Program-made: the position numbers and the translations under genes
Assembly: GCA_001303125.1 (NCBI GenBank)
Contig: LJNE01000001.1
Location: forward strand, 81,737-145,736
Length of the DNA: 64,000 bases
DNA from: Parcubacteria bacterium DG_74_1
GTDB taxonomy: Bacteria; Patescibacteriota; Minisyncoccia; Minisyncoccales; DG-74-1
Direction of reading: 5' to 3'
Notes under the pieces: generated by a model
The model's input: only the letters and a program-made list of their open reading frames with translations
The model's database searches: none
Told to the model about the DNA's origin: nothing
Shown here: in pieces, positions 2,971-28,376 of the stretch
Layout: each line of letters opens with the position of its first letter
Numbering within the stretch: position 1 is the first letter of the stretch

Positions 2971-3011
2971 AACATTAAAAGAAACAGGTGGCATCCGCAA
3001 TGAATGCCACC
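2971..3011 (-). terminator. Intrinsic terminator downstream of the 3025-3453 gene
   Basis: 8-bp stem ggtggcat (2987-2994) / atgccacc (3004-3011). On the minus-strand RNA it is followed by UGUUUCUUUUAAUG. Confidence 0.6.
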
Positions 3012-3024
3012 CATATGCCCTTGA

Positions 3025-3453
3025 CTAACTCCTTGTAATTACATGTTCTGTAAATTTATCTCCACCCCACAGATGTTTTGTTGTTTCGTATGCCCAATCT
3101 TCACCAAGTAAGTATCTGGCCTTGAAAGCCATATATGTACCATCTAATTTTTTGCCCTTCACTTTGTCTCTGAGACCAGGGAACGGATCGGTATAAAACC
3201 GATAAATAATTCTATCTTTGGTAACTTCTGGAAATTCTACGTGAAGACCTACGTTTCTGTCTCTTTCCCCAACTACCCTGGCAAAGTCCTGAGGATCTCC
3301 TCTTGTAAACCCTGAATTATCATAGGCCTTTTTTAACCCCCTCTCCATGATTTGCCTAAATAAATCCAGGGCTCTTTCTTCGCCAAAGGTTTTCTTCAAT
3401 ACCATGAATACATTTTCATATAACCCAAAAAAAGCTGCGTTGTATTCTTTCAT
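3025..3453 (-). CDS. Hypothetical protein (142 aa) carried on its own transcription unit
   Basis: ORF with a GGAGGA Shine-Dalgarno 7 nt upstream of the ATG at 3453 (MKEYNAAFFGLYENV...). It has its own promoter and terminator. I recognise no family. Confidence 0.55.
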   Translation of the reverse strand: MKEYNAAFFGLYENVFMVLKKTFGEERALDLFRQIMERGLKKAYDNSGFTRGDPQDFARVVGERDRNVGLHVEFPEVTKDRIIYRFYTDPFPGLRDKVKGKKLDGTYMAFKARYLLGEDWAYETTKHLWGGDKFTEHVITRS

Positions 3454-3497
3454 GTCTTTATCCTCCTTTTTTAATATTTTAAGGGAAAACTGCAATA

Positions 3498-3526
3498 ATT
3501 ATAGTCTTTTATTTTCAAACTATCAA
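3498..3526 (-). promoter_or_regulatory. Sigma70-type promoter TTGATA-17 nt-TATAAT
   Basis: The plus strand reads tatcaa at 3521-3526 and attata at 3498-3503, with an exact 17-nt spacer. Confidence 0.6.
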
Positions 3527-3560
3527 GCTCAAGCATGTAGGGCGGCGCCTTTCATCAAAA

Positions 3561-4553
3561 TCAAAACAAATGTTTATCGATCAATTTCGCGCCATCGCCC
3601 GGCCGACAAATCATCGTTTCTATCACCCCTTCTAATTTTAATAATCTTTTATTGATTTCTTTTTCGTCTTTTTCTAAACACAGAATTTTAACATTGGGCC
3701 CGGCGTCAATTGTGAAATAACATTTTACTCCTTCTTCTCGCCAAGCTAAGACATTTTGGATGATTTCTATCGTTGCCGGAATCCAATAGATAATTGCTGG
3801 CTTTGTCGTCATCATCAAAGCGTGCATTTTAAGACAATTGTGTTCTGCTGCTTGAGCGACTTTTTTAAAGTCTCTCTCTTTTATCCCTTCTTTAATCATT
3901 TTCAAGTCATCAGTTACTGTCCCAAGCCATCCTTCGTAATAAGGGCAGGTTTCAACGGTTTGTGCCATTCCGGCGCGGCTAGTCACCGGTTTCTTTCCCT
4001 TTTGGACAATAGTGGCAATCATTCTAAATTCCGGCCAATAATTTTTATCAACGATACTTTCAGCGTAACTATCCAAACCATCAGGCATTTTCCCGCGATG
4101 CCACTCTACAAAACCCCCAAAAATACTACGACAAGCAGAGCCAGAACCTTGCCTAGTGAGAATTGATAAGTCTTTAGGTGATAATTTTAATCCCGCTGCA
4201 GCTGCGGCGGCAACTGTCAGTGCCGCAAAGCCACTGGCGCTACTGGCTAAGCCAGCAGCCACCGGAAAGTTGCTTTCAGAAACAACTCTCGCTTTATCTT
4301 TTATCCCGGCCAAGCGACTAATTCTATCAATATGACCATGGATATCTTTTTCATCCTTCTGAAATTCCTCATCATTTATGACAACACTATGCTCTTTATA
4401 TTTATCTGAAAACTCAACCGTAGTGGTGGTAGTCATGCCATCGCAAGTCATCGAGATATTGCTGTTTTGAGGAAGTATCAACTTTTTATCACGTTTGCCC
4501 CAATATTTGACCAAGGCAATATTAGCATTGGCAACAGCCGTAGCCTTCATCAT
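3561..4553 (-). CDS. mvaD: Diphosphomevalonate (or phosphomevalonate) decarboxylase, GHMP family
   Basis: ANIALVKYWGKRD and GLASSASGFAAL motifs. 330 aa. Confidence 0.85.
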   Translation of the reverse strand: MMKATAVANANIALVKYWGKRDKKLILPQNSNISMTCDGMTTTTTVEFSDKYKEHSVVINDEEFQKDEKDIHGHIDRISRLAGIKDKARVVSESNFPVAAGLASSASGFAALTVAAAAAAGLKLSPKDLSILTRQGSGSACRSIFGGFVEWHRGKMPDGLDSYAESIVDKNYWPEFRMIATIVQKGKKPVTSRAGMAQTVETCPYYEGWLGTVTDDLKMIKEGIKERDFKKVAQAAEHNCLKMHALMMTTKPAIIYWIPATIEIIQNVLAWREEGVKCYFTIDAGPNVKILCLEKDEKEINKRLLKLEGVIETMICRPGDGAKLIDKHLF

Positions 4554-5533
4554 AGGTTATTTTCTATTTTTAAACCTTGGTAATCAACATTAACCGAAAC
4601 TGGCGTACCTCCGGCTTCTTTTATCGCTTTTTCTATTTCTCCTCTATTCTCTCCCAAAGCGATAATACAATCACCGACTCCGGCGCCAGATAATTTGGCG
4701 CCGAAAGCACCGGCTCTTTGACAGACCTCGATCAGTTTTTCAATAATTTCTGAGGAAACGCCGTATTCTACAGAAGGAGCTTTGAATTTTCTCAAGATGC
4801 CTTGATTTTCAGTCATCAACCGACCGACTTCCGGCCAACTTGAATTTCCCATAGCTGTTTTTGCTTTTTCAACAATCTGTAAAATATCGTCGTAAGCTTT
4901 CTCATAGTATTCAGAGTCTTTCTCCATTTCTACTTTAACTGCTTTGACGATTTCAGAAGTGCTGGCTTTGACGCCGGTATAGCCAACTATCAAAGGAATG
5001 TTTTTAATTTCCAGCGGCTCAATTCTCTTTCCACCGGTTAGAAAATAAATCACTCCGCCATAAATAGCCGCAGCGATATCAAAGCCTGAACCAACGCCTT
5101 GAATGTCTAAAACTGTTTTATAAGACAAGTCGAAAATTTCTTTTTCTGCCATTTTTACCTCGAAAATTTCCGACAAGGCCTTTATAGTACAAACAGTCAC
5201 TGCCGAACTCGAGCCAAAACCGTACTCAGCCGAAAACTGACTTTCGGTTTTTATTTTTAGCCCTGATTCAATATTATATTTTCTAAAAAAATTCTTAACC
5301 GCTTCCAGAACAAATCTAACTTCTTTGGGCTGTTCTTTGTCTAAATCGGTTAAAGAAACGGCGAAATCAGAAACTTTCATTTGCGGAGCATCGAGTAGGA
5401 TTTTATTTTCAGAATTTTTCTCTACTTCAACAAACAAACGCTGTGAAACCGCAGCGACCAAACAAGGCCGGTTATAAACAACGGCATGCTCTCCAAATAA
5501 CATTAATTTTCCCGGTGCGGAAACTTTTATCAT
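4550..5533 (-). CDS. mvk: Mevalonate kinase
   Basis: SAPGKLMLFGEHAVVY and GFGSSSAVTV GHMP motifs. 4-nt overlap with mvaD. Confidence 0.8.
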   Translation of the reverse strand: MIKVSAPGKLMLFGEHAVVYNRPCLVAAVSQRLFVEVEKNSENKILLDAPQMKVSDFAVSLTDLDKEQPKEVRFVLEAVKNFFRKYNIESGLKIKTESQFSAEYGFGSSSAVTVCTIKALSEIFEVKMAEKEIFDLSYKTVLDIQGVGSGFDIAAAIYGGVIYFLTGGKRIEPLEIKNIPLIVGYTGVKASTSEIVKAVKVEMEKDSEYYEKAYDDILQIVEKAKTAMGNSSWPEVGRLMTENQGILRKFKAPSVEYGVSSEIIEKLIEVCQRAGAFGAKLSGAGVGDCIIALGENRGEIEKAIKEAGGTPVSVNVDYQGLKIENNL

Positions 5534-5611
5534 TTTTAATTAGTTAAATATAATTATTTAATTATCCTTAAAATCCCTTGTTTTAATCTTAATATCTTTT
5601 GATCGAATGTC

Positions 5612-5655
5612 AAACTCAAAGAAATCAGGTGGCGCCCGAGAAGGAACACCACCTG
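5612..5655 (-). terminator. Hairpin terminator after the high-GC cassette
   Basis: Stem caggtggcg (5626-5634) / caccacctg (5647-5655). The single mismatch becomes G-U only on the minus-strand RNA. The hairpin is flanked by A and T runs. Confidence 0.5.
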
Positions 5656-5685
5656 TTTTTTCCTTAGCTAAGCATTCAGCTTAGT

Positions 5686-6705
5686 TTAGAATTTACCCTC
5701 CATGTAGTCTATCATACCCTGGCGCCATTCTCGGGCTTTTTCACCCGCTGGACTCCAGTCTAGCACCAAACGGTCAAGGTCTTCCTCATAGCGGCGACTG
5801 AAGTACTTCACCGTCTCGAGGGCCGAAATACTCACGTCCTCTGAGACAGAGACTATTCTTCCGTCGGTGATTCCACTTTTCGAGACGATCAGGTCGACTA
5901 ACTCAAAGATGTCTTCCGGCGCGACTATCTTTCTCGCCTGGAGGATGTTTTTACCCTCACTGGTTTTCTTCTCTAGAAGCAATTGGGTAATGCCTTCCAC
6001 GGTTAATCTTAGTCCCCAGATAACACCGAGAACAAATTCCCGTTGGATTTGATAAAGTGGCTCCACAACTGGCTTTAACCTCAGAGGATAGATTCCCTCC
6101 GGGTTGATGAAAGCCAGCCGTAAAAGGCTTTCGATAGCGACAACTAAGGCTTCGTCCTTATCGGGCTGAAACCCGAAGTTGCGCCAGTCGCCTTTCTCGC
6201 TGCGGAGCCGGTTACCGGCGACAAACTGAGAACGCCGGGCAATCACCCTCACCCCGTTGGCCTCCATTTTGTCAGCAACGAACAGGGCAAGATGAAGCTT
6301 CTTCCCTAGCTCCTCCGGCACTACCTCTCTAGTCTCCGGGGCTTTCCACCATTCAGGATACTGGCCCTGTCTTGCAATCGCGTAGGCGATAGCCGTTCCC
6401 TCTGTTTCGGTTATAAGGTTGGCCTCTGTCAGGATTCGACGAGCTTCTTTCGCGCTGGCCTCCTCATCGCCGACTGACGGATCTTCATTAGACGAACGAA
6501 TCCTATCGTGAAACCAGCCGTCTGCGTAGTTCAGCTCGTTTTCTCGCTTAGTGAAGCCATAAATTGACCCTACCTTCTGAGTTAGCTCGGCCACATTCCC
6601 TAAGTGAGAAATACTATGAGCCTCAGAAACATCGAGACCCTTCTGTTGTCTCTCCTCGACCCCTGCCTTTCCTAATCGAGCAATCTCCTCTTCCCAGTTT
6701 TTCAT
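5686..6705 (-). CDS. Hypothetical protein (339 aa), possibly an HD-type phosphohydrolase. First gene downstream of the methyltransferase in the high-GC cassette.
   Basis: Intact ORF with AAGGAGG 5 nt upstream of the ATG. Loose H...HD...D pattern (EAHSISHLG...WFHDRIRS...FVADKME). The function call is weak. Confidence 0.5.
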   Translation of the reverse strand: MKNWEEEIARLGKAGVEERQQKGLDVSEAHSISHLGNVAELTQKVGSIYGFTKRENELNYADGWFHDRIRSSNEDPSVGDEEASAKEARRILTEANLITETEGTAIAYAIARQGQYPEWWKAPETREVVPEELGKKLHLALFVADKMEANGVRVIARRSQFVAGNRLRSEKGDWRNFGFQPDKDEALVVAIESLLRLAFINPEGIYPLRLKPVVEPLYQIQREFVLGVIWGLRLTVEGITQLLLEKKTSEGKNILQARKIVAPEDIFELVDLIVSKSGITDGRIVSVSEDVSISALETVKYFSRRYEEDLDRLVLDWSPAGEKAREWRQGMIDYMEGKF

Positions 6706-7745
6706 ATCTCCTCCTTTTTTGTCTTTTCTCCGACTGTTACCATTAACAGTCGTGAATTAGGTAACAGCTGATGCGGGTTGCCGGTAATGACACCTTGTTC
6801 CAGCATTCTCTTTATACCAGGAGAACCAACGCTGAACCCTACTTCTTTCATCTCCTCAACGTATCTTACGACTGGGCGGTGTCCTTCAAGAGGCCAGATT
6901 GAGTTCGGCCCCAGGTCTGTCTCGCTCTCTTTGAGAATTTGATGATATCCGAGCCAAAAGCTAGTAATGTCTTCGTTGGCTTGTCTGTCGGCCGGATCGG
7001 TTGGTTCGATAACGCAAACACCTCCGTAGGACTCAAGCCACTCCCTCAGCCCCGCTTCCTTTACGGGCCAATCAAATGCCTCTAGAAAGCGGTAGACTCG
7101 CCAAGGATGCTCCCAAATAGAGTTATGCCAATCAGCAAAGACGGCAATTCCTCCAGGAGTAAGTATCCGATAATAGAGATCGAAGGGGATGGCTGAGTGA
7201 TGATGGACTGAGGCTACGCCAACCAGAATATCCACAATCCCTTCTTTCAGGTGTCTACCGACATGGATATCGACATCGCAGATAACCTCGTAATTTACCC
7301 GGTTCTCTTTCATCACCTTCTCAGCTGCTTCAAGGCTTGCCCTAGAAGGATCTAGAAGTAAGAACCGAGACTTGGGCCGGATATCAGTCGGTAGCTCTTT
7401 CCATATTGTAAGCGCTGACAAGCCGGGCCCTGCGCCTACATCTAATATCAAGAGCTCACCTTTGATGGGATAATCTCTGACAATCGATCTTACTACCTCG
7501 GCAGTTTTTTGCCGAAGTAAAGCCGGATTATCGCCAAAACCAGCTTTTTTGGCAGCCTTGCTCACGATAGCAAGCTGTCCCTCGTTTCCTCCTTCCCATT
7601 CGGCACTGTAAAACTTAACTACCTCCTCTTCCTTGATAGAGGTTGGTAATCCCCAAGCCCTACGTGCATAGTCTGGGGTTCGCACAGGAGACCCCATCTG
7701 TATAGGCATTAATGCTTCGTTATGTCGAACAAAATCATTGCTCAT
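6702..7745 (-). CDS. Class I SAM-dependent methyltransferase (347 aa)
   Basis: Motif I ILDVGAGPGLSALT, then an acidic LLLDPS, then GGIAVFAD. AAGGAGG SD. ATGA overlap with the downstream ORF. Confidence 0.75.
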   Translation of the reverse strand: MSNDFVRHNEALMPIQMGSPVRTPDYARRAWGLPTSIKEEEVVKFYSAEWEGGNEGQLAIVSKAAKKAGFGDNPALLRQKTAEVVRSIVRDYPIKGELLILDVGAGPGLSALTIWKELPTDIRPKSRFLLLDPSRASLEAAEKVMKENRVNYEVICDVDIHVGRHLKEGIVDILVGVASVHHHSAIPFDLYYRILTPGGIAVFADWHNSIWEHPWRVYRFLEAFDWPVKEAGLREWLESYGGVCVIEPTDPADRQANEDITSFWLGYHQILKESETDLGPNSIWPLEGHRPVVRYVEEMKEVGFSVGSPGIKRMLEQGVITGNPHQLLPNSRLLMVTVGEKTKKEEI

Positions 7746-7780
7746 TCGGTACCTCCTTTCTCGTGTCTTTATTCACTGCC

Positions 7781-7836
7781 ATTGTGACAGCTGCTTAAAA
7801 ACTTCCTAATTGAAGCGGTTAAACAGCTGCCACAAT
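7781..7836 (-). promoter_or_regulatory. 13-bp inverted repeat (possible operator or stem-loop) upstream of the cassette
   Basis: attgtgacagctg (7781-7793) pairs with cagctgccacaat (7824-7836). The one mismatch pairs as G-U only on the minus-strand RNA. Confidence 0.4.
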
Positions 7837-7975
7837 ATGATAGATATTTAAATTTCAAAAGAACTGCAACGTTTATTATAACTCTTTATTTTAAAATTGT
7901 CAATGATTTGTAAGGCACGGCTTTTGAAAGAAAAGAGCGTTCGTTTCCGAATACTCTTTACTCGTAACAATGCTC

Positions 7976-9068
7976 TTAAAATCGGGTTTCCCGTCCTCTC
8001 CAGTCTTTTTCAATTTTTACTCCTTCAACCGCCAGTTCGCTTTCCCAGGGATCATAGCCAATTTTCTTTATTAGATCAACCAGCTTATCTTTCTCCTCGT
8101 GGTAGCATAAAACTATTCCTCCACCACCGGCACCACACAGCTTAGCTGCTCCGCCGATCTTTTGAACAGATTCGACAATCTTATCTATTTCTTCGGTCGA
8201 GACTTTCAACTCAGCCAGATTTTTTTGAGTTTGGTTTATAATTTCTTTCATCCTTTGAAAGTCTTTCCTTCTCAAAACATCTAGCATTTCGTGACACATC
8301 TCTCCGATTTTTTTTGTTCTTTCTGTTCTGTATCCTTCATCCAGCTCCCTAACCAATTGAACTAATTCTCCAGTTGTTTTTTGTGGTGGACTAGTATAAA
8401 CAAAAACAAAATTTTCGAGCCTATAAGGAACCTCTTCTTTCAAAGACTTTATCTCGTTTTTCGGCTGGGCTTTTTTAAACCAAACAAGACCGCCGAAACA
8501 ACAAGCAGAATTGTCTCCGCCGCTTGGCGTACCATGAATTATCTTTTCTTGCTCAAAAGCAATATCATTTATTTCCTCCAGAGAAAGCTGTTTTTCAAAC
8601 AATTCAGCAACCGCCTTTGTTGTACCAGCTGCCCGTGAAGCTGAAGAGCCAAGTCCCGCACCGGTAGGAATTTTACTATCAATAGTTATCGAAAAACCTT
8701 GACTAACTCCTAGCTTTTTCATCACCAAGCCAAGAATAGAGGCCCGATAGCCCTCGTATCCATTTTCTTTAATTAAAGCTGAAAAGCTTTAGAAAAATCC
8801 TTTTTCTCGTTACCCTCGCTCCAAAGATCTAGCGTTTTTTGGGTAATTTCAAAAACTTGTTCGATTTCCCAAGTATGTGATATATCAGGCCAGGCAATAT
8901 CCTGATAAGTTACATCTTCGGCAGGACTTATATCGACGTATGTCCTATTACCTATGGCAGTAATTATGGCCGGCTTGCCGTAGACAACGGCGTGCTCACC
9001 GATTAAATGTAACCTTTCCCGGTGCCGATACTTTTATTTTTTTCTATTTTTTTTATTCCGTTATTCAT
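7976..9068 (-). pseudogene. GHMP kinase (phosphomevalonate-kinase position in the operon) disrupted by about three frameshifts
   Basis: Pieces lie in three frames: MNNGIKKIEK.. / KIKVSAPGK / LHLIGEHAVVYGKPAIITAIG...KAFQL* / SFSALIKENGYEGYRASILGLVMKKLGVSQGFSITIDSKIPTGAGLGSSAS... Shifts are near 9032-9043 (A-run), 9013-9014 and 8775-8791. Confidence 0.6.
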
Positions 9069-9101
9069 TGTTTATAATATTAAGAGACCGACCTTGATGT
9101 T

Positions 9102-10256
9102 TTATTTTTTAGCTGTCTTTTTTAAAAATTCTTGATGGAGCTTCATGTGCCCTTTTTGGATACCTTCGGTGCCCAAAACTGAAAGGGCGGCCAAATTGTT
9201 AGCCAAACCAACAGAAGCTGCGACAATACCCAATTCTTGAGCGTTTTTTACTCCTAAAATTTTCAGGGCCAATCTGGATTTTTTTGTTGCAGTAGCTCCG
9301 CCAACCGTGGCAATGGCTAGGGGAATTTTAATTTCTCCTTTCAGAAATTTTTTCTCCAGCCCCCATTTAGTTACTGGTTTATATTTTCCATCTTTGGCAG
9401 CAAAACTATGAACACCTGATTCAATCGCCCTGAAATCATTCCCGGTAGCCAAAGCTACCGCATCAATCCCGTTCATTACGCCCTTGTTATGGGTGACAGC
9501 CCGATAGATATCGTTTTCAGCCAACTTCTGACCGTATAGAATTCTTTGAGCGACTTTGGCTCCGGAAAACTCATCCAAGGCCAACTTCTCAATCGGAACC
9601 TTGCCCTTAATAGAAACAGTCCTCCTTTCTGCAAAATTAGAAATTATCCTTAGGCCAATTTCCGTCTTGACGATCTTAACAACAAAGAGAGCAATTTCTT
9701 CCAGCATAGTATTAACAAGGTTGGCTCCCATGGCATCTTTGGTATCAACAAACAGGTAAAGAACCAGAAAATTCTTTATTTTTTTAATTTCAAAGTCTTT
9801 TGCTCCGCCAGAAATCGACAAAAGAAATTTATTAGTTTCGTTAGCCTTTTTTAAAATCTCTTTTTTATTTTTAAAAATTTCTCTCTTTGCCCGCTCAAAA
9901 TTTTTTATTCCAATTAACTGCAATTGGCCGATCATTTGGTTTCCTAAATATTTCCCAAAAAAACCACCGCCTTCTCTAACCAGTTTGGCTGCCCGAGAAG
10001 CAGCTGCTACGACCGAGGGCTCTTCAATTTCCATGGGCACAAAATAATCTTTGTTGTTAATCAAAAAATTACTAGCGATTTTAAAAGGACCGAAGTTATT
10101 CTCCAGGTCAACAAAATCAGGCAGTTTCTGATATTGATCAATCAGTTTTAAGTCTTTCTTATCTAAAGAAGAAAAGCTGGCAACAGTTTTTATTTTTTCT
10201 ACCAGCGGAAGTTGATGAAATTGAGAAAGAGAAGAAGTCATTGGCTTTCTCGCCAT
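9102..10256 (-). CDS. mvaA: HMG-CoA reductase (short, class II-like)
   Basis: DAMGANLVNTMLE and GTEGIQKGHMKLH motifs. Confidence 0.85.
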   Translation of the reverse strand: MARKPMTSSLSQFHQLPLVEKIKTVASFSSLDKKDLKLIDQYQKLPDFVDLENNFGPFKIASNFLINNKDYFVPMEIEEPSVVAAASRAAKLVREGGGFFGKYLGNQMIGQLQLIGIKNFERAKREIFKNKKEILKKANETNKFLLSISGGAKDFEIKKIKNFLVLYLFVDTKDAMGANLVNTMLEEIALFVVKIVKTEIGLRIISNFAERRTVSIKGKVPIEKLALDEFSGAKVAQRILYGQKLAENDIYRAVTHNKGVMNGIDAVALATGNDFRAIESGVHSFAAKDGKYKPVTKWGLEKKFLKGEIKIPLAIATVGGATATKKSRLALKILGVKNAQELGIVAASVGLANNLAALSVLGTEGIQKGHMKLHQEFLKKTAKK

Positions 10257-11401
10257 TTTAGATATTGTTTAATGGTTAGTTTTTTACCTCTTTTTAGTTG
10301 GGGACCGAGGTCACTCCTAAATTTCTTATTCGACAATACGGTTCCTTTAATACAAATCGAACTGGCGCCCCCGCCGTAGCCGTTAATACCAATCTCTTGA
10401 CCTTTTCTGGCCTTTTCTAGAACTCCAGCCAAGGAAATAAAAATAGAAGAGGTATAAGAGTTCCCAATATAAGGATTATATTTTAAACCCGGACTGAATT
10501 TCTGGCTAAAAAATTCTTTAAAATCTGGAGTTCCTCTAATCTCGTCAAGTTCTTTTTTGTATCCAGCGAAAAGGCTTGGTTTTTTAAGACATTCAGCCAG
10601 GGTAAGATGTTCTTTTTGTTTCAGCCTTTCGTGCCGCCAGAAAAGAGCCGCCACCCACTCAACGATTTTGGGAAAAGGTGTGTGCATAATAAAAAAATCA
10701 AATGTCTCCAAAAGCCCCTCCTTTTTTGTTTTTAAAAATTTTAGATTATTTTTCTTCCAGTCTTCTAGGGCTCTTTTTTGACATTCTAAAAAAGCCGGCT
10801 TGGTTAATGCTCCATCAACTCGAGGAAAAGGATAAGAAGAAGACGGAACCCTAAAATCATCAATATCGGCCGCATACTGACCTAAGTTCTGATAATCCAA
10901 ACTTAAGATTTTTGGTTTGTTCTCAATTCTCATAGCTACAGCCGCGCAGCCCTGGGTTACTTCGGCCTTAGGATCTTCTTGACGGTAAATAGAGCGGTCA
11001 ATAGAGAGAGCGACAGCCGGCTTACCAGAATTAGCCTGGTTATACTCACAGGCTGAAATTAATGCCTGTAATCCTCCCAAACAGGCAAATTTATATTGAA
11101 AAGGAACGCTTTTTAGTCCTAATTTATGATTAAGAATTTTGACACTCAGGGGCTTAGAGGCGTCTGGATCCGATTCAGTACCAATATAAAACCTTTCTAC
11201 GTCTTTGAAGTTAATTTTCAAAAGGGCTTCTACGGCCAGTTCAGTAATAGAAATTTTATAAGGAACCCTGGCCTCAACCACGCCTAAACCCTTACCGGTA
11301 TAAGCTGAAGGAATTTTTCTTTTTTTTGCCAATTCTCCAATTGAAATGAAATGTTTTGGAACGGCAATGCCGATTTGTGAAATTCCGACCTGAGAAACCA
11401 T
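10238..11401 (-). CDS. mvaS: HMG-CoA synthase
   Basis: Catalytic-Cys block KFACLGGLQAL, then HTPFPKIV and GNSYTSSIF. Confidence 0.85.
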   Translation of the reverse strand: MVSQVGISQIGIAVPKHFISIGELAKKRKIPSAYTGKGLGVVEARVPYKISITELAVEALLKINFKDVERFYIGTESDPDASKPLSVKILNHKLGLKSVPFQYKFACLGGLQALISACEYNQANSGKPAVALSIDRSIYRQEDPKAEVTQGCAAVAMRIENKPKILSLDYQNLGQYAADIDDFRVPSSSYPFPRVDGALTKPAFLECQKRALEDWKKNNLKFLKTKKEGLLETFDFFIMHTPFPKIVEWVAALFWRHERLKQKEHLTLAECLKKPSLFAGYKKELDEIRGTPDFKEFFSQKFSPGLKYNPYIGNSYTSSIFISLAGVLEKARKGQEIGINGYGGGASSICIKGTVLSNKKFRSDLGPQLKRGKKLTIKQYLKWRESQ

Positions 11402-11405
11402 AATT

Positions 11406-11912
11406 TTATTTTTTTCGACTTTTTATTTTTCTAAGAATAATTTTAAACCAGGGCGTATATTTTTTTGGATTTTTTTTAATGTCAGCTTTCAAGTCCTTTA
11501 ATTTGACCCACCGCCAGTCAGCCACCTCTTTTTTGCTGGGCTTAGGGCTTCCATCAAATTTACCGAGAAAAACATGGTCAAATTCATGTTCAATAAGACT
11601 ATCAAGCTTTGCTTTATAGACAAAATTAAAAACTTCTTTTAATTTACAATTAATACCCATTTCCTCTTTTAACCTCCTTTCGGCTGCCGATTTTACTTCT
11701 TCTCTTGGTCTAGGATGAGAACAGCAGGTGTTTGTCCAGAGTCCCGGAGAGTGATATTTCGATTTGGTTCTTTTCTGGATTAGGGTTTCTCCTTTTTTAT
11801 TAAACAGGAGTACGGAAAAAGCCCGATGTAGTTTTCCCACCCGATGGGCTTTCATTTTTTCTTCTGTCCCAATAGTTTCGTTTTTTTTGTTAACTAAAAC
11901 AATCCTCTCCAC
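11406..11912 (-). CDS. idi: Isopentenyl-diphosphate delta-isomerase, type 1 (Nudix)
   Basis: HRAFSVLLFN, WTNTCCSHP and EHEFDHVF motifs. Confidence 0.85.
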   Translation of the reverse strand: MERIVLVNKKNETIGTEEKMKAHRVGKLHRAFSVLLFNKKGETLIQKRTKSKYHSPGLWTNTCCSHPRPREEVKSAAERRLKEEMGINCKLKEVFNFVYKAKLDSLIEHEFDHVFLGKFDGSPKPSKKEVADWRWVKLKDLKADIKKNPKKYTPWFKIILRKIKSRKK

Positions 11913-11918
11913 TTTTTT

Positions 11919-13016
11919 CTAAGTCTTTCTCTCAATTAAATAATTAATGAATTCTTCTAATTTGGCTTTTGCCTTTGAATCTGGTAATAATTTCTCGGCA
12001 TCCTGCCAACTCCCTCTAACGATTTTCCGGGCCACTTTTCTAGCATAATCTATGCTACCATATCTTTTAATAATTTCTATCGCCTCATTCCTCTCTTTCA
12101 AATTATTGGTGTGTTTATTCAGTATTTCTAATAACCTTTTCTTGTCTTTTGAGCTGGCTTTCTTCAAGGCATGAATAACAATTAAGGTTCTTTTGCCTTC
12201 CTTAATATCGTTACCAAAACTCTTGCCAAATTTTTTTCTTTCTTTCCCCTCTAGGGCCAGGTCTAGAATATCATCTTGGATCTGAAAGGCGACTCCAATG
12301 GCTTCTGCCATTTTACCGATATTTTTAGCTAGTTTATCGCTTTCTCCCGAGAGAACGACTGCCATCTTGGCGGCTAAACGGGAAAGGCAACCGGTCTTGA
12401 AAGCGCACATTTGTAAATACTCCTTTTGATTAATTTTCTTAACCTTTCCCTTATGCCAATAGATGTCGGTACCTTGGCCAAGGTGAATGTTGATCATGTC
12501 CTGGGCATAAATTTTGTAAGCTTTAGCTAAAACTTTAGGTTTAAATTTGTTTTTGGCTTTTATTAAGGTTAGCAAGGGTAGAAAATAGAGGAAATTTCCA
12601 GCATTGACGGCTACATCAACTCCGAAAACTCTATGCAAACAGGGTTTCCCCCTTCTCAACTCCCCCTGATCTTCAACGTCATCAGTTATAATAGACCCGT
12701 CATGCGCCAACTCAGGGATAATCAAAAAATCTTTAACTTTTCTGATATCGCCGCCGACAGCTTCGGTAATCAATAAAAACAAAGTTGGTCGCCACCTTTT
12801 TCCGCCTCGGTCCAAAAACTCATAGATGGGCCTAATAAGAACTTCTTGAGCCGCTTTTTGACTATAAAAATAACGAGGTTTTCCGAAAGTAAACTCTAGC
12901 CATTTTTTGGTAGCCTTCCGCGGGAGATATTTTTCAATCAGCTTGTCAATCTCCGGTTTTTTCTTTTCTAAATAATCCTCTATCCCCTCTTTCTTTATTT
13001 TGGTTTGACTAGGCAT
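11919..13016 (-). CDS. Polyprenyl diphosphate synthase (chain length not determinable)
   Basis: Asp-rich motifs ITDDVEDQGELRRGKP and FQIQDDILD. Confidence 0.85.
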   Translation of the reverse strand: MPSQTKIKKEGIEDYLEKKKPEIDKLIEKYLPRKATKKWLEFTFGKPRYFYSQKAAQEVLIRPIYEFLDRGGKRWRPTLFLLITEAVGGDIRKVKDFLIIPELAHDGSIITDDVEDQGELRRGKPCLHRVFGVDVAVNAGNFLYFLPLLTLIKAKNKFKPKVLAKAYKIYAQDMINIHLGQGTDIYWHKGKVKKINQKEYLQMCAFKTGCLSRLAAKMAVVLSGESDKLAKNIGKMAEAIGVAFQIQDDILDLALEGKERKKFGKSFGNDIKEGKRTLIVIHALKKASSKDKKRLLEILNKHTNNLKERNEAIEIIKRYGSIDYARKVARKIVRGSWQDAEKLLPDSKAKAKLEEFINYLIERKT

Positions 13017-13020
13017 AAAC

Positions 13021-14163
13021 TCAGTGTTTAGAGCGAGCGTATCCTTTATAAATCAGGATAAGCTTAAGAAGCTTGAAAATATTTTTTCTCAAATTTGGTT
13101 TTGATAAAAAATTAGGGAGGGCAGAAAGGTTTTTCAAATAAAAAATATCTCCCCCGGCTTCTTCTAAAACTTCTCCAACTTCATTCAGGCTTTTATTGTT
13201 AAGCGAGTATAGAATTTCCTGGACCAAAAATAAATTTTCATTAAAACAAGAAAGGAATCTAATTTTTGATGGATAAGAGTCGGTATTCCCTGAAAGGATA
13301 CACTTGGCCGCCTGCTCTCCAGCAATCATGGCATTGCCAACCCCACCACCTGTTATCGGATCAACCATAGCACCGGCATCACCAACTAAAAGCGCATTAT
13401 CTTTTACTAATTTTATAGGTTTCTTTACTAGCGGGATCACGCCGCTGATATTCTTCAAAAGGCGACAATCGCCAAAATCTTTTTTAATGGTGTTTTCCAT
13501 AAAATCTTTGAGCACGGCCTGAAGATTTATTCTTCCTCCAGAGCCCAAGCCGATATTGGCCGTGTTTTTTGATTTAGGAAAAATCCAGACATAACCTGAA
13601 GGACATCTTTCTTGGTTGAAATAAAGCTTCATGGTATGACAATCCATTTCTTTTTCAACCTCAACCAAATATTGAAGACATGGATAAATCTCTACTTTCT
13701 CTTGAAAAACCTTTCTTCTAATGATTGAAGTAGGACCGTCGGCGCCAATAAGATATTTTGATTCAAAATTATCGCCATCCTGCGTTTTTACCCGCCAAAC
13801 TTCCCCCTCTTTTCTGACGTCAGTTACTCTTTTTTGAAGCCGAATTTCTGCCCGACATTGTTTGGCTAGAAATTTTTCAAAATTTACCCTGTCTAAAATA
13901 TAGCCTCCTTCTTTTGTTGAAAGATTGGCGGTTTTGCCATTTGGCAAAACCGCTTGACTCTTATTAATGGTAGCGGAAATCCAGTTCGGATCGGGCTGAA
14001 TACCAAGTCTATCTAAAAAATATCTGGCTAATCCTTCGGCGCACTGAACTGGCTTACCGATTTCTTCTTTCTGTTCCAAGATTAGAGCATCATCCAGATC
14101 TCTCCCGCAGATTAAGCCACCAGGACCAGCCCCAATGATAATTGTTTCAAAATTTTTTTTCAT
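13021..14163 (-). CDS. Geranylgeranyl reductase family flavoprotein
   Basis: IIIGAGPGG dinucleotide fold and the LVGDAGAMVDPITGGGVGNAM block typical of GGR/digeranylgeranylglycerophospholipid reductases. Confidence 0.75.
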   Translation of the reverse strand: MKKNFETIIIGAGPGGLICGRDLDDALILEQKEEIGKPVQCAEGLARYFLDRLGIQPDPNWISATINKSQAVLPNGKTANLSTKEGGYILDRVNFEKFLAKQCRAEIRLQKRVTDVRKEGEVWRVKTQDGDNFESKYLIGADGPTSIIRRKVFQEKVEIYPCLQYLVEVEKEMDCHTMKLYFNQERCPSGYVWIFPKSKNTANIGLGSGGRINLQAVLKDFMENTIKKDFGDCRLLKNISGVIPLVKKPIKLVKDNALLVGDAGAMVDPITGGGVGNAMIAGEQAAKCILSGNTDSYPSKIRFLSCFNENLFLVQEILYSLNNKSLNEVGEVLEEAGGDIFYLKNLSALPNFLSKPNLRKNIFKLLKLILIYKGYARSKH

Positions 14164-14190
14164 ATTGGCAGATTATATAAATGTCACGAG

Positions 14191-15015
14191 TCACCACGAG
14201 TAGAGCGTTGATGCCACTATAGCAGCATAAGAGAGGATCCCATAATAAGTATCTATCATTTGAAAGTTTCTCCTAAAGAGGAACAGAAAGAGAAAGAGGC
14301 AACTTAAAATTAAGAATAAAAATAAAAAATTTTGAGAAAGCATAAAGAAGGCCGGAAAGAGGGCCAAGGGATAAAAAAAAGCTAGGTACTTTAAGAGGTT
14401 TTCTGATTTTTTATAACCAAGGAAACAGACAGTAGTTTGCAGACCAGCCTGGAAATCTGATCGATAATCTTCTAAATGATTTCTTGTTTCTAACATAACT
14501 GACAAATAAAAAATAGAAAAAGTAACTAAATAGTGAAAGGTGGTTAATCTTGAACCAAAAACTAAAAAGGGGAAGAGAAAAATTAAGACTCCAGCAAAAA
14601 GGCCATGAGAAATTAAATCCAAAAAGGGTCTTGATTTCATTCTTAAGGGCGGGGCGGAATAAAAAAACCCGATCAAGCCGGCAATCAAAACGAACAAAAA
14701 TATCTCTGCCCCGAAGTAACTTGACAGAAACAAAGCTAAAATACCAGGAGAGACCGAAAAAAGAAAGTTTTTCTTATTCTGAACCAAAAGATCCTTTACC
14801 TCTCCCTTTTCTTTATCTTCTTTAATATCGAAAAAATTATTAACCGAAAAACCAAAAGCTAAAAGCAGAACGACAATGACCCAAAAAAGTAAGATGCCTA
14901 GGGGCGGTGCGAGAAAACCTTTAGCAACAACGAACCCTAAAACACCCAATCCAAACCAAGCTCGCCAGTCTTTCATTCGATAATAATTAAGGAAAGATTT
15001 AAAATTGAGTGACAT
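14191..15015 (-). CDS. UbiA-superfamily prenyltransferase (polytopic membrane protein)
   Basis: NNFFDIKEDKEKG (NxxxDxxxD) and LEDYRSDFQAG second Asp motif. About 8 hydrophobic segments. Confidence 0.75.
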   Translation of the reverse strand: MSLNFKSFLNYYRMKDWRAWFGLGVLGFVVAKGFLAPPLGILLFWVIVVLLLAFGFSVNNFFDIKEDKEKGEVKDLLVQNKKNFLFSVSPGILALFLSSYFGAEIFLFVLIAGLIGFFYSAPPLRMKSRPFLDLISHGLFAGVLIFLFPFLVFGSRLTTFHYLVTFSIFYLSVMLETRNHLEDYRSDFQAGLQTTVCFLGYKKSENLLKYLAFFYPLALFPAFFMLSQNFLFLFLILSCLFLFLFLFRRNFQMIDTYYGILSYAAIVASTLYSW

Positions 15016-15755
15016 TAGATGGCTAAGCCGCCGTCGATGTTAACTACTTCACCGGTAATGAAACTAGCCTCGTCTGAAGCTAGAAAGGCGACCAAACTGG
15101 CAACCTCTTCCGGTTTGCCAAACCGTCCCAAGGAAGTCAATTTTAAAACCGTCTGCCTAACCTCTTGAGGTACTGTTTCTGTCAATTTTGATTCAATAAA
15201 CCCTGGAGCCACGGCATTAACTCTTATCCCCAACTTTCCGACTTCTTTAGCTAGGGATTTGGTAAAACCAATAATACCGGCTTTGGCGGCAGCATAATTT
15301 GCCTGACCAAAATTTCCTCTTTGACCCACCAAAGAAGAAACACTAACAATCTTTCCCTGGCTCTGGATGAGTAAGGGTAAGGCAGCTTTTGAGCAATTAA
15401 AAACTCCTGTCAAATCGATATCAATCACTCTTTGCCATTCTTCTTTGGTCATTTTAGCTAGGGTTCGATCGGCACAAATTCCAGCATTATTTACCAAAAC
15501 ATCCAATCGGCCAAACTCTTTATGGATTTGCTGGACCATTTTCTCCACTTCTTCTAGCCTTGAGACGTCAGCAAAAAAATACTTTGCTTCGGCTGTTTGT
15601 TTTTCAATTTCTTCCTTAACTTTCTTTAAATTTTCTTCCTGACTCCCAATATCATTCAGGGCAATTCTCCCTCCCAAAGAAGCGAACTTTAAAGCGGTAG
15701 ACCTGCCAATTCCCTGAGAAGCGCCGGTAATTAAAATAACCTTATCTTTAAACAT
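15015..15755 (-). CDS. fabG: 3-oxoacyl-ACP reductase / SDR
   Basis: TGASQGIGRSTA, NNAG and YAAAKAG motifs. Confidence 0.8.
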   Translation of the reverse strand: MFKDKVILITGASQGIGRSTALKFASLGGRIALNDIGSQEENLKKVKEEIEKQTAEAKYFFADVSRLEEVEKMVQQIHKEFGRLDVLVNNAGICADRTLAKMTKEEWQRVIDIDLTGVFNCSKAALPLLIQSQGKIVSVSSLVGQRGNFGQANYAAAKAGIIGFTKSLAKEVGKLGIRVNAVAPGFIESKLTETVPQEVRQTVLKLTSLGRFGKPEEVASLVAFLASDEASFITGEVVNIDGGLAI

Positions 15756-15757
15756 GT

Positions 15758-16840
15758 CTAATATTTTTCAACTTCGTATTGAACTTCTTTAATTTTTCTG
15801 CCGACAATCGGAATATCATCAATTTTAACCCTTTTAAGATATTCTGGCAATTCTCTTGTCATAGTAACTTCAGCGAAAATTCTATCTAAGTTTAAAGGGT
15901 TAAAGCTGCCAAAAATTAGATTCAGGTGGGCGACAAACTGATCCGTTTTTTGAATCGATTGAGCCTCGGCCAGAGTAAAATATCGTGGTAAAACTTTATT
16001 TAAATTTTCAATAATTTGTTCTTCGGAGTGCAGATACTTTAAACCAAGGTAATTTTCCTTTTTCAAAAACTTTAAAATATTTTCGCTGGCTGAAGCTTTC
16101 CCGATTTTTAAAATTGGCAAGTTGGCAATTAAGTCGGCCTTGAAAACTTCTTCGGAAATCTCAAAACTAAAATCTCCTTCTCCCTTCTTAATAAAATCGG
16201 TTTTAGCCAGATCTAAGGGTAAAATTCTATAATTTTGACAAACCTTGAGTAGTTGGGATTTTTGAGCTGCGGCCTCGATAGGCGTTTCGTCAAAACTTTG
16301 GCCAGCAACCTTAATGTTCTCCAATCTCACCCCTCGTCCCATTAAATATTTAATAAGGCTTTCTAAGAATTGAGGGCTAGTGTTTTCAGCAAAATGAGGA
16401 TGCCTCGGTAAAACTAAGGTCGGTAAAATCAAGATCTTAAAGTCCTGCCTAACATCAATTCCGTCAAATAATTCAACCACTTTTTCTATTCCTTCTAGAA
16501 CATCGTACTTTATCCGCCAAACGGCGACCGTGTTACTCTCGGTTGTTGTTTCAATTTTAAGCTCCTCACCGATTCGGTATTCTTCAACGCTTTTCCAGAC
16601 CCATTTATTCCCTTTTTCATCTTCCAAAACCAAAACAAAATAGGGAATTTTAGGATGAAACATTGTTGGAATAGTCACTCTAGAGACTCCAATTACTTTA
16701 ACTTTTTCAGACTTTATCTTTTCTAATGCCGAAAAACACTCCGGACATTTTTCAATCGGATACTGCCAAACTTTTTTACATTTTTGACATTTATAGAACA
16801 TGGTATAATTACTTCTATATGAAAACTTATTTTTTGCCAA
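15758..16840 (-). CDS. DUF35-like Zn-ribbon/OB-fold protein fused to a C-terminal domain of about 240 aa (DUF362-like by my recollection)
   Basis: CQKCKKVWQYPIEKCPEC ribbon followed by an OB-like segment. The C-terminal half begins KILILPTLVLPRHPHFAENTSPQF. The start may be M14 at 16801. Confidence 0.55.
   Translation of the reverse strand: MAKNKFSYRSNYTMFYKCQKCKKVWQYPIEKCPECFSALEKIKSEKVKVIGVSRVTIPTMFHPKIPYFVLVLEDEKGNKWVWKSVEEYRIGEELKIETTTESNTVAVWRIKYDVLEGIEKVVELFDGIDVRQDFKILILPTLVLPRHPHFAENTSPQFLESLIKYLMGRGVRLENIKVAGQSFDETPIEAAAQKSQLLKVCQNYRILPLDLAKTDFIKKGEGDFSFEISEEVFKADLIANLPILKIGKASASENILKFLKKENYLGLKYLHSEEQIIENLNKVLPRYFTLAEAQSIQKTDQFVAHLNLIFGSFNPLNLDRIFAEVTMTRELPEYLKRVKIDDIPIVGRKIKEVQYEVEKY
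16801..16809 (+). promoter_or_regulatory. Extended -10 (TGgTATAAT) 9 nt upstream of the DUF359 ATG
   Basis: tggtataat at 16801-16809, ATG at 16819. Confidence 0.5.
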
Positions 16841-25195: not shown

Positions 25196-25267
25196 TGGAC
25201 CCGGTGGGATTCGAACCCACGATCTCCGCGATGCGAACGCGGTGTTCTCCCTCTAAACTACAGGCCC
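25196..25267 (-). tRNA. tRNA-Ala (anticodon CGC), no encoded CCA
   Basis: Hand-folded cloverleaf: acceptor GGGCCTG/CGGGTCC with G3:U70, anticodon arm CCGCG-TTCGCAT-CGCGG, T arm GTGGG-TTCGAAT-CCCAC. Confidence 0.85.
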
Positions 25268-25894
25268 AAGTATTTTTTTTAATTCAGCTAAAGAATTAAT
25301 TTTTCTTACTGGTGGATTTTTAATTTTATTTTCCCTATCAATTAAGATTGCTTCTATACCAAGATTTTTAGCCGGGACTAAATCTCTTTCTATTTCATCG
25401 CCTATCATTGTCGATTCTTCCGGCTTTACTCCAAGTTTATCTAAGGGGTATAAAAACGCTCGAGGATCAGGCTTTTTAAATTTAGTTTCTCGGGGAGTAA
25501 AGACTTTAAAATGTTTCTCTAAATTGAGGTTGGAAAATAAAAAAGGGGCAGAACTTGTTAAAATGGCCTTTTGATAGGGCAAATTAATAATCTCCTTAAC
25601 ATCGTCATAAGGCTGGTAGATAAGATTCTTTCGGTAAAAATTAGCTAATTTATTAATAATGTTTTCGTCAGTTCTCTGAATGGTTCTTTCGAGGAGCTTT
25701 TGGCTCAAATCTCGCCAGTTGGTGCATTTGCTCATCAGTTGGGTAAAAAGAGAAGTGAATAATTTTATATCTTCTTCTGCCTTGAGTTGAATCCCGATTT
25801 TTTGATAGAAAGCAAAGAAATCTTCCGGTCTAAGTTTGGTTGCCGGTCGAATTAAGGTCCCAAATAAGTCAAATAAAATTAATTTTGTTTCCAT
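25253..25894 (-). CDS. HAD-superfamily hydrolase (DxFGT variant, subfamily IA-like)
   Basis: METKLILFDLFGTL..., ILTSS and IGDEIERDL motifs. The ATG abuts the tRNA-Pro 3' end, and the last 4 codons plus the stop lie inside tRNA-Ala. Confidence 0.6.
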   Translation of the reverse strand: METKLILFDLFGTLIRPATKLRPEDFFAFYQKIGIQLKAEEDIKLFTSLFTQLMSKCTNWRDLSQKLLERTIQRTDENIINKLANFYRKNLIYQPYDDVKEIINLPYQKAILTSSAPFLFSNLNLEKHFKVFTPRETKFKKPDPRAFLYPLDKLGVKPEESTMIGDEIERDLVPAKNLGIEAILIDRENKIKNPPVRKINSLAELKKILGPVV

Positions 25895-25965
25895 TCGGGG
25901 TGCTGGGAGTTGAACCCAGGCCGCAGAGTCCCGAACCCTGTATACTACCGTTATACTACACCCCG
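25895..25965 (-). tRNA. tRNA-Pro (anticodon CGG), no encoded CCA
   Basis: Acceptor CGGGGTG/CACCCCG (C1:G72 as in bacterial tRNA-Pro), anticodon arm CAGGG-TTCGGGA-CTCTG, T arm CTGGG-TTCAACT-CCCAG. Confidence 0.85.
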
Positions 25966-25977
25966 TTAAACTTAACC

Positions 25978-27483: not shown

Positions 27484-27596
27484 TCGCCAAGTCCTACAAA
27501 GCAGGGTGAAACAAAAGATGGGACGAAGTTTCGACGGCTACCCGGGTAGCAGGGAGAAACGGAAGAAAGAAACTTGTTTTCTCTGTCCATTTTTAT

Positions 27597-27602
27597 TATA
27601 AT
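27597..27602 (+). promoter_or_regulatory. -10 hexamer TATAAT 10 nt upstream of tRNA-Arg
   Basis: tataat at 27597-27602. The tRNA begins at 27613. Confidence 0.45.
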
Positions 27603-27612
27603 TAGTTTGGCT

Positions 27613-27684
27613 GCCCCCGTAGCGTAATGGATAGCGTGCAAGACTTCGGATCTTGAGGTGAGGGTTCAAATCCTTCCGGGGGCA
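27613..27684 (+). tRNA. tRNA-Arg (anticodon TCG), no encoded CCA
   Basis: Acceptor GCCCCCG/CGGGGGC, anticodon arm CAAGA-CTTCGGA-TCTTG, T arm GAGGG-TTCAAAT-CCTTC. Confidence 0.85.
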
Positions 27685-27686
27685 CT

Positions 27687-28244: not shown

Positions 28245-28261
28245 AATAAATTCGTCTTTTC

Positions 28262-28334
28262 GTCCCCTAGTTTAATTGAATTGGCGAAACAGCGGTTTCT
28301 TAGGTCAAGGAGCCTAGGTCTGCCTCCTACACCA
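28262..28334 (+). pseudogene. Decayed tRNA-Lys(CTT)-like copy
   Basis: Aligns with the intact tRNA-Lys downstream (GTCCCC-TAGTTTAATTG...CGGTTTCTTAGG...AGGAGCCTAGGTC), but the acceptor stem cannot pair. Confidence 0.45.
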
Positions 28335-28336
28335 AT

Positions 28337-28376
28337 GCCCCATTAGCTCAACTGGTAGATCAATCACGCCCTCTAT
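28337..28376 (+). pseudogene. 40-nt 5'-half tRNA fragment abutting tRNA-Lys
   Basis: GCCCCATTAGCTCAACTGGTAGATCA... has an acceptor 5' strand and D-arm only. No anticodon or T arm. Confidence 0.4.

Follow-up and report, generated by a model that had tools for sequence, protein, structure and literature searches.

The 64-kb stretch of contig LJNE01000001.1 analyzed here (the window, to whose numbering all unprefixed positions refer) carries a set of mevalonate pathway genes, all of them on the minus strand. Between mevalonate kinase (gene mvk, protein MVK) and a second GHMP kinase lie two overlapping genes without a name, which encode a 347-amino-acid (aa) methyltransferase (MT) and a 339-aa HD-domain protein (HD). 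Judged from gene order in widely separated lineages, the two genes belong to mevalonate operons as a conserved accessory module and are no stray insertion. The mevalonate pathway is textbook metabolism, several unexpected variants of which surfaced only in the last decade. The enzyme superfamilies of MT and HD are already familiar; what is new are the two families themselves and their conserved, partly fused association with mevalonate operons in the Candidate Phyla Radiation (CPR), the DPANN archaea, and the Humimicrobiia.

The order MVK, MT, HD, second kinase, diphosphomevalonate decarboxylase (MDD) recurs in the relatives L002, L003, L035, and L037 (L-numbers denote retrieved comparison loci); among genomes that share this order, the nearest is that of a Candidatus Humimicrobiaceae bacterium (Actinomycetota). 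It is found again in Levybacteria (L004 and L017), in Daviesbacteria (L020), and in further CPR-type operons (L006, equal to L021, and L016). When one genome per species was scanned, mevalonate genes flanked MT in 20 of the 24 loci. In Gottesmanbacteria and Roizmanbacteria (L012, L013, and L014), HD and MT form a single open reading frame (ORF) of ~700 aa, HD being N-terminal and MT C-terminal, and the two halves match the family profiles at E values of 1e-148 to 1e-159; the fused ORF of L012 (Gottesmanbacteria, LCEX01000031) spans 5912-8014 of that locus, and P0141 (718 aa) is another HD-MT fusion. Such fusions, together with the conserved adjacency, indicate that MT and HD are functionally coupled. 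The original prediction had the genes inserted in the middle of the operon, perhaps simply disrupting it, and this part does not hold, since the same position is occupied in relatives and in distant phyla and there are no traces of mobility. Its proposed link to isoprenoid precursor metabolism, on the other hand, is strongly supported by that conserved position and by the fusions.

In DPANN archaea, the neighbor of MT is a HAD phosphatase, a SerB-like protein of 279 aa, or a divergent HD-family protein; the partner is of the last kind in L023, L025, and L028. MT stands beside a classical mevalonate set in L008, L010, L025, L030, and L031 (e.g., L008 has two GHMP kinases, the SerB-like 279-aa protein, MT, HAD, Nudix, and MDD). 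In L009 and L027, it accompanies the archaeal route, with isopentenyl phosphate kinase (IPK), UbiX, AcnX, and UbiD together with HAD or the 279-aa protein, MT, and MVK; L024, also from DPANN, shows UbiD. The HAD partners of the archaeal MT resemble small-molecule phosphatases and pyrophosphatases. As far as gene neighborhoods can tell, these loci show that the stable unit is a predicted methyltransferase plus a predicted phosphohydrolase, usually beside a gene of the mevalonate kinase type. They also tie MT and HD to the phosphorylating part of the pathway irrespective of the downstream route, the partner always being a putative phosphohydrolase of some kind. A 321-aa neighbor in L010 was considered as a relative of HD and rejected, as profile-profile comparison was negative and it has no Pfam or NCBIfam match. 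A distant subfamily from Micrarchaeota has adjacent HD (430 aa) and MT (392 aa) genes with no mevalonate genes nearby. On a high-GC contig labeled Pirellulales (L033, 3627-8085), the gene of a distant 450-aa homologue of MT precedes an ORF that weakly matches the C-terminal part of GHMP kinases, and a HAD phosphatase comes next; this may be a stand-alone trio of kinase, methyltransferase, and phosphatase outside a mevalonate operon.

Descriptions of the mevalonate pathway distinguish classical, haloarchaeal, and Thermoplasma-type variants and an archaeal one via anhydromevalonate phosphate (PMC6107057, PMC11052028). The MT-HD module is embedded in operons of at least two variants, whereas the variants as described include neither a methyltransferase nor an HD/HAD phosphatase. 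The two surveys of mevalonate pathway evolution just cited mention no methyltransferase, and full-text searches of the literature turned up no paper on a methyltransferase or HD protein of mevalonate operons.

Table 1. Genes and predicted signals of the mevalonate region, in the order of transcription.
Feature	Position	Strand	Remarks
HMG-CoA synthase	11401-10238	-	First in transcription order
HMG-CoA reductase	10256-9102	-	
Mevalonate kinase (mvk)	7976..9064	-	Upstream neighbor of MT; matches TIGR00549
Predicted promoter of MT-HD unit	7875..7903	-	TTGACA-17 nt-TATAAT; 12/12 consensus positions
Predicted 5'-UTR (5'-untranslated region) stem-loop	7781..7836	-	~19-bp outer stem plus 5-bp inner stem, between promoter and Shine-Dalgarno
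Shine-Dalgarno of MT gene	7752..7758	-	AAGGAGG; read from the sequence
MT gene	6702..7745	-	347 aa; identical to KPJ73679.1 "hypothetical protein AMJ48_00545"
Shine-Dalgarno of HD gene	6710..6716	-	AAGGAGG; inside the 3' end of the MT gene
MT/HD stop/start overlap	6702-6705	-	ATGA
HD gene	5686..6705	-	339 aa; same 90%-identity cluster as KPJ73678.1 "hypothetical protein AMJ48_00540"
Intrinsic-terminator-like hairpin	5616..5655	-	12-bp stem 5626-5655 with 7 G-C pairs and one U-G; then ATTTCTTT
Promoter-like site of second GHMP kinase	5613-5586	-	Promoter scan
Second GHMP kinase	4550..5533	-	Downstream neighbor; phosphomevalonate-kinase-like; 327 aa, intact
Diphosphomevalonate decarboxylase (MDD)	3561..4553	-	330 aa; translationally coupled to second kinase

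The signals around the two genes (Table 1) predict that in this lineage the MT-HD unit is transcribed separately, from a consensus promoter through a 5'-UTR hairpin to a terminator of its own. The promoter is the best-scoring promoter-like site within 3000-12000, and its hexamers and spacing are identical in L002, L003, L035, and L036. The leader has a minimum free energy of -39.7 kcal/mol (z = -5.1 vs. shuffles). An alignment of five rows, that is, four distinct sequences (L035 and L036 are identical here), has 0 broken pairs in the main stem; seven pairs vary one-sidedly yet stay standard (A-U/G-U, U-A/U-G, or U-G/C-G), and one change, A-U to G-C, is compensatory. This pattern, with no pair broken, speaks for an RNA structure formed by the sense transcript. 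Searching Rfam with the whole window, and permissively with 5400-8100, gave no family for the 5'-UTR hairpin; the matches were tRNAs elsewhere and others at chance level. The inverted repeat underlying the hairpin was missed by the repeat finder (its exact seeds are <8 nt) and was confirmed by folding and a pattern search. A similar hairpin lies 3' of the HD gene in L039. The original prediction had read the Shine-Dalgarno sites, the ATGA overlap, and the two bounding structures correctly, including the imperfect positions that pair as G-U only on the minus-strand transcript. Directly 3' of mvk (7926-7958, minus strand) there is a further hairpin with a T run (GAGTATTCGGAAACGAACGCTCTTTTCTTTC), which is kept in L002 and L003; with it, the mevalonate genes of this lineage appear to form three transcription units.

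Base composition is what first set the two genes apart, and the hand counts of GC behind the original prediction (55/100 and 36/60 within the unit, 38/100 and 23/60 in the flanking pathway genes) were all reproduced exactly. The unit (5686-7745) has 49.8% GC, as compared with 40.4% for the pathway genes downstream and 39.2% for those upstream. The HD gene (GC 0.513; GC at third codon positions, GC3, 0.565) and the MT gene (GC 0.483; GC3 0.460) are the top two in GC among the 54 long ORFs of the window (z = 3.8 and 2.8, respectively). The window means are GC 0.40 and GC3 0.38 and the neighboring genes have a GC3 of 0.30-0.40, which leaves MT and HD with an excess over their neighbors of +0.10 in GC and of up to +0.2 in GC3. 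After HD and MT, the ORF richest in GC is 46294-47331 (minus strand; GC 0.468), third in the window; it encodes a protein of 345 aa with a Lys/Glu-rich tail and lies beside the gene of a large membrane protein.

The same excess is seen in relatives. In six Humimicrobiaceae-like loci HD has 0.50-0.51 GC and its neighbors 0.33-0.44, and in five of the six MT has 0.47-0.49; HD is thus present in all six related loci and MT in five, the sixth, L039, having HD alone. In 16 CPR and DPANN loci, pair and host differ in GC by no more than about 0.05. Comparisons inside the lineage give lower conservation for MT and HD (70-77%) than for the flanking genes (75-93%); against CPR, the two tend to higher conservation than the flanks (40-56% vs. 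30-51%), though HD vs. L006 reaches only 40%. This reversal between short and long range fits a separate history for the MT-HD module, and a GC excess that is common to the Humimicrobiaceae-like relatives and absent from the CPR and DPANN loci fits an old transfer, not a recent insertion. The composition therefore agrees with an old event in which an ancestor of the Humimicrobiaceae-like lineage acquired the module laterally or had its own replaced. Unlike what simple amelioration after one old transfer should leave, the high GC persists in relatives down to 65% identity, which weighs against this history. Of the original claim of a laterally acquired, self-contained unit, the self-contained part (own expression signals, coupled translation) and the lineage-foreign composition stand. 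The original prediction had also named beforehand what should count against it, namely, the same genes at this position with a host-like composition in all relatives: the genes are at this position in relatives, and the composition is host-like in CPR and DPANN and not in the nearest relatives. One should keep in mind that a clear compositional anomaly need not signal a recent or disruptive insertion.

Neither an integrase nor a transposase was found within 10 kb on either side of the unit, and there are no flanking direct repeats around it and no similarity to plasmids. PADLOC returned only a partial match of the methyltransferase domain of MT to mad2 (E 6.5e-10) and none for HD. A mobile island or a defense element was rejected on these grounds (no mobility genes, flanking repeats, or plasmid match) and because the unit lies in an operon for biosynthesis.

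Close relatives differ in what lies between mvk and the second kinase (L002, 6065-9005; L003, 7800-10706; L037, 1958-2734; L035, 3426-3851; L039, 8001-9044). The contents seen are MT-HD, a 141-aa ORF followed by MT-HD, MT-HD-HAD-HD, MT-HD with a 258-aa HD protein of the YqeK/NadD-associated type, and HD alone. Where a HAD gene or the 258-aa HD gene is added, it has the low GC of its host, and HD (and MT) are always GC-rich.

Turning to the proteins, MT is a class I (Rossmann-fold) S-adenosylmethionine (SAM)-dependent methyltransferase, as judged by its motif I, its predicted fold, and its profile matches. The SAM motif I reads ILDVGAGPG, in which D102 is near-invariant and G104 and G108 are invariant, and Pfam Methyltransf_25 is reached with 27.4 bits against a cut-off of 27. 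The AlphaFold2 (AF2) model (predicted local distance difference test, pLDDT, 94.3) has alternating strands and helices in the core with N- and C-terminal additions, and Foldseek relates it with a probability of 1.0 to many class I enzymes through the generic core only (TM-score normalized to the query, TMq, about 0.4). The fold and profile matches include thiol, sugar, and carboxyl O-methyltransferases as well as C-methyltransferase domains of polyketide synthesis, and because these chemistries are so diverse, the fold does not reveal the reaction. In the family alignment H181, D205, W206, H207, E287, and H289 are invariant, W211 is invariant or near-invariant, and H182, H183, E212, and R290 are near-invariant, with H182-H183 conserved in ≥90%. 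From their positions in the secondary structure, we infer that the residues of this conserved cluster lie at the substrate edge of the sheet. The family comprises 43-69 clusters at 90% identity in a set of 5.8 billion proteins, and 139 clusters at 50% identity (E ≤ 1e-30) when 1.84 billion proteins were searched exhaustively. By this sequence clustering, it is a discrete, unnamed class I family.

The best lead to its chemistry comes from CysG and BelI of cystargolide and belactosin biosynthesis. These are His-His-Asp metal-dependent O-methyltransferases that act on the C1 carboxylate of 3-alkylmalates (PMC11408123; PDB 9FCD and related entries). CysG has a His-His-Asp calcium site, with Asp191 as the third ligand, and binds the carboxylate by Arg22, His167, and Arg187 (PMC11408123). 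Both CysG and MT have the class I fold and an N-terminal segment bearing a conserved Arg (R22 in MT), and phmmer aligns H181-H182 of MT with the His pair of the CysG metal motif directly after strand 4. The CysG substrate is a hydroxy-carboxylic acid, chemically near mevalonate, and its methyl ester is a transient handle that is later removed. The differences are considerable: the MT family is 130 aa longer and has other N- and C-terminal elements, its partner is a phosphohydrolase in a context of primary metabolism where CysG has a carboxyl-esterase partner in a natural-product cluster, and CysG ranks below PsoF, YcgJ, MM_2633, and CurJ in the profile matches of MT. The resemblance to CysG/BelI is therefore best used as a lead, since the similarity falls short of the family level and does not make MT a member.

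HD is, from its conserved residues, a canonical H–HD–D phosphohydrolase of putative activity with an extra helical domain. In 34 aligned sequences H30, H66-D67, and D145 are invariant, which bears out the original "possibly HD protein," and H34 also lies in the N-terminal HD fold; many Arg and Lys residues are conserved. The protein of the window has no Pfam match itself, and its homologues reach PF01966 at 23.5-30.8 bits against a cut-off of 22. The AF2 model (pLDDT 92.2) has its best fold matches among YpgQ-type hydrolases, with a TM-score normalized to the target (TMt) of 0.69 to YpgQ (0.68-0.70 for YpgQ and BT9727_1981), and profile searches gave weak matches to 2pq7, YedJ, and YpgQ. HD shares the H...HD...D metal site and the helical core with these YpgQ/YedJ/2PQ7-type phosphohydrolases. 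It differs from them in that HD alone has an extra C-terminal helical domain (~140 aa), which is conserved and without a structural match, and in that HD itself falls under the Pfam threshold. The family, with 60 clusters at 90% identity among 5.8 billion proteins, is small, discrete, and unnamed. HD-domain di-iron oxygenases of the MIOX and PhnZ type have two more His ligands between the HD and the last Asp. This identity was rejected for HD, which has no further invariant His; a semi-conserved His ("HG" before YPEW) is Gln in the protein of the window.

Taken together, we think that MT and HD probably form a coupled methylation/dephosphorylation module that acts on an intermediate of the mevalonate pathway. 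The substrate would be a small phosphorylated intermediate common to the classical and archaeal routes, that is, mevalonate-5-phosphate or isopentenyl diphosphate (IPP)/dimethylallyl diphosphate (DMAPP). Mevalonate-5-phosphate is favored because the kinase that produces it is the constant neighbor of MT and because a His-rich metal site beside SAM fits the binding of a hydroxy acid or phospho acid; as the specific substrate, it is a tentative choice. The His/Asp/Glu site of MT would bind the anionic substrate, which would then be methylated, with the carboxylate as the likeliest target, as in CysG and BelI. The HD phosphohydrolase may then take the phosphate off the methylated intermediate, although the order of these steps is a proposal. 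A doubly anionic intermediate would in this way become a methylated, dephosphorylated, neutral product and be lost from the pathway, which would make this branch an exit, an overflow, or a means of damage control.

A precedent of a kind is offered by BioC/BioH of biotin synthesis, where SAM-dependent methylation masks a charged group, the pathway proceeds via the fatty-acid machinery, and a hydrolase removes the methyl group. The likeness lies in a methylation that would mask the charge of a primary-metabolic intermediate and in a hydrolase encoded alongside; the difference is that the partner of MT is a phosphatase and that no re-entry step is evident. More speculatively, MT, the phosphatase, and the adjacent mevalonate kinase might constitute a three-step branch of mevalonate metabolism in CPR, DPANN, and Humimicrobiia, in which phosphorylation provides a handle, mevalonate-5-phosphate is methylated, and dephosphorylation releases a new metabolite; we regard this extended scheme as doubtful. 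If it were true, the product would be methyl mevalonate or mevalonolactone, which is neutral, diffusible, and exchangeable between host and symbiont, or alternatively a C-methylated mevalonate for non-canonical C6 isoprenoid units.

Several points weigh against the proposal of a coupled module on mevalonate-5-phosphate and its CysG-like chemistry. A branch that drains the pathway would seem expensive for organisms whose genomes are very small, and L039 has HD without MT at the site, so HD can work without MT. The similarity to CysG is weak (E about 8e-4 with the single sequence and 2e-6 with the profile; ~18% identity over ~110 core residues). The metal site of MT is putative, with two His aligned, and the His-His motif is also present in YcgJ and MM_2633. 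The polyketide C-methyltransferase domains of PsoF, CurJ, and DisA are among the profile matches of MT, which leaves both O- and C-methylation possible. Finally, existing annotation of MT and HD reads only hypothetical, or generically methyltransferase, and we infer the chemistry.

Two other readings keep the pair within isoprenoid metabolism. MT might C-methylate IPP, DMAPP, or geranyl diphosphate (GPP), with HD/HAD enzymes dephosphorylating the product or prenyl phosphates; methylated hemiterpene alcohols or C6 blocks would result. IPP and DMAPP methyltransferases are on record (PMC9401056), and both compounds are likewise common to both pathway variants. Such SAM-dependent class I enzymes acting on products of the same pathway occur in Streptomyces and Rhodococcus (IPP/DMAPP methyltransferases), and GPP 2-C-methyltransferase is a further one. 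The invariant aromatics Y46, W206, W211, and W264, with acidic residues, could stabilize or quench a carbocation, and the several phosphohydrolases at the site in relatives (HD, HAD, and a second HD) fit a stepwise removal of diphosphate. We nevertheless consider this reading rather unlikely, as no GPP or IPP methyltransferase appears among the 37 PDB profile matches, the top 50 fold matches, or the NCBIfam matches at E ≤ 1. The known enzymes lie beside terpene synthases or cytokinin genes and are neither paired nor fused with phosphatases, whereas MT adjoins mevalonate kinases, at the kinase end of the operon and not by the prenyltransferases. A fused phosphatase would also destroy a building block meant for elongation, and C6 units would serve no evident purpose in CPR bacteria whose only nearby synthase is one for undecaprenyl. 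Less probable again is a valve on flux, in which HD (HAD in archaea) would hydrolyze surplus mevalonate diphosphate, IPP, or DMAPP before these reach toxic levels, while MT acts elsewhere or regulates the phosphatase or kinase. The HD-MT fusion and the persistence of the pair even where no mevalonate genes are near argue for one substrate path, and the MT pocket is fully conserved and catalytic-looking; the valve, for its part, would account for HD alone in L039, for a phosphohydrolase content that differs between relatives, and for the promoter and 5'-UTR structure that suggest separate regulation in this lineage.

The remaining two readings take the pair out of the pathway. A YpgQ-like nucleoside triphosphate (NTP) pyrophosphohydrolase and a methyltransferase might clean up or modify a nucleotide-type compound (e.g., an isopentenyl-nucleotide adduct) and merely be co-regulated in the operon. 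Among solved structures, the HD half comes nearest in fold to YpgQ, which is an NTP pyrophosphohydrolase, and to the relatives of YpgQ; this and the conserved Arg and Lys of HD, which would fit a polyphosphate substrate, point that way. Since the YpgQ match is weak (E 0.05, 14% identity) and limited to the generic HD core, the archaeal HAD/SerB-like substitutes are small-molecule phosphatases, and nothing else in the neighborhoods is nucleotide-related, we hold this to be improbable. A recent foreign insertion, a hitch-hiker with no isoprenoid role that merely interrupts the operon, is the least credible of all. It would explain why GC and GC3 are clearly above the surroundings, why the unit has its own promoter and terminator, and why the upstream kinase is frameshifted in the window. 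Synteny largely refutes it, the same position being occupied in distant phyla by genes of host-like composition. All relatives of the lineage carry the unit (L039 HD only), without mobility genes, flanking repeats, or plasmid similarity, and the frameshifts are away from the border of the unit and absent from a contig of 99.9% identity.

A replacement of IPP isomerase by the pair was also considered and rejected, since Nudix-type isomerase genes are present along with the pair in the window and in L006, L014, and L020.

The pair is found in some of the least understood lineages, the CPR Microgenomates, the DPANN archaea, and the Humimicrobiia. If it does modify a pathway intermediate, there would be an extra branch or control point in the provision of isoprenoid precursors, in organisms that are believed to rely on partners for their lipids. 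It might then also provide new enzymes for methylated or dephosphorylated C5/C6 building blocks, and the list of substrates is short and directly testable.

The state of the kinases in the window requires a correction. The original prediction placed the unit between two GHMP kinases, which is right, and took the second of them to be frameshifted; the frameshifted kinase is the upstream mvk, and the second is intact. Four single-A insertions (9045, 9010, 8790, and 8774) split mvk into three frames, and a fifth (9103) lies just upstream of it; tblastn with the intact L002 MVK recovers two frames (identity 81-84%). Compared with the JGI contig Ga0310070_1000018 (L001), to which it is 99.9% identical, the window has these five single-A insertions, one 109-bp deletion, and ten substitutions. 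The deletion (at 2299/2300) splits a FabK/NMO-like gene into ORFs 1651-2178 and 2214-2480. L001 lacks the A insertions and has a 362-aa mvk called, and mvk is intact in L001 and in all relatives. The insertions and the deletion are most simply explained as errors of assembly or as damage that arose very recently at the strain level, in either case unrelated to the MT-HD unit. The idea that insertion of the unit caused the frameshifts was rejected because L001 has the same unit and an intact mvk. As for the other two pathway genes, the second GHMP kinase scores 100.9 bits with NCBIfam Arch_PMK and 125 bits with Pmev_kin_Gr_pos, both above the scores of mvk, and MDD scores 323 bits with TIGR01240 against a cut-off of 171.

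Upstream of the mevalonate genes (11919-16700; L001 1-4792) are genes for a polyprenyl synthase, a geranylgeranyl-reductase-like flavoprotein, a UbiA prenyltransferase, a short-chain dehydrogenase, and a DUF362 protein. Downstream are bacterial fatty-acid and phospholipid genes (FabA-like, FabK-like, PlsC, acetyl-CoA carboxylase, and PlsY). An archaeal-looking toolkit for isoprenoid lipids thus adjoins a bacterial one, and the relative L039 adds a faint squalene-hopene-cyclase-like gene. The public label of the organism of KPJ73678.1 and KPJ73679.1 is "Parcubacteria bacterium DG_74_1," yet gene order and the most similar genome are those of Candidatus Humimicrobiaceae. The CPR-type loci L016 and L021 carry the label "uncultured Gammaproteobacteria," and the taxon labels of such records look unreliable. 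The sole Rfam matches in the window are four tRNA genes at 25196-28449.

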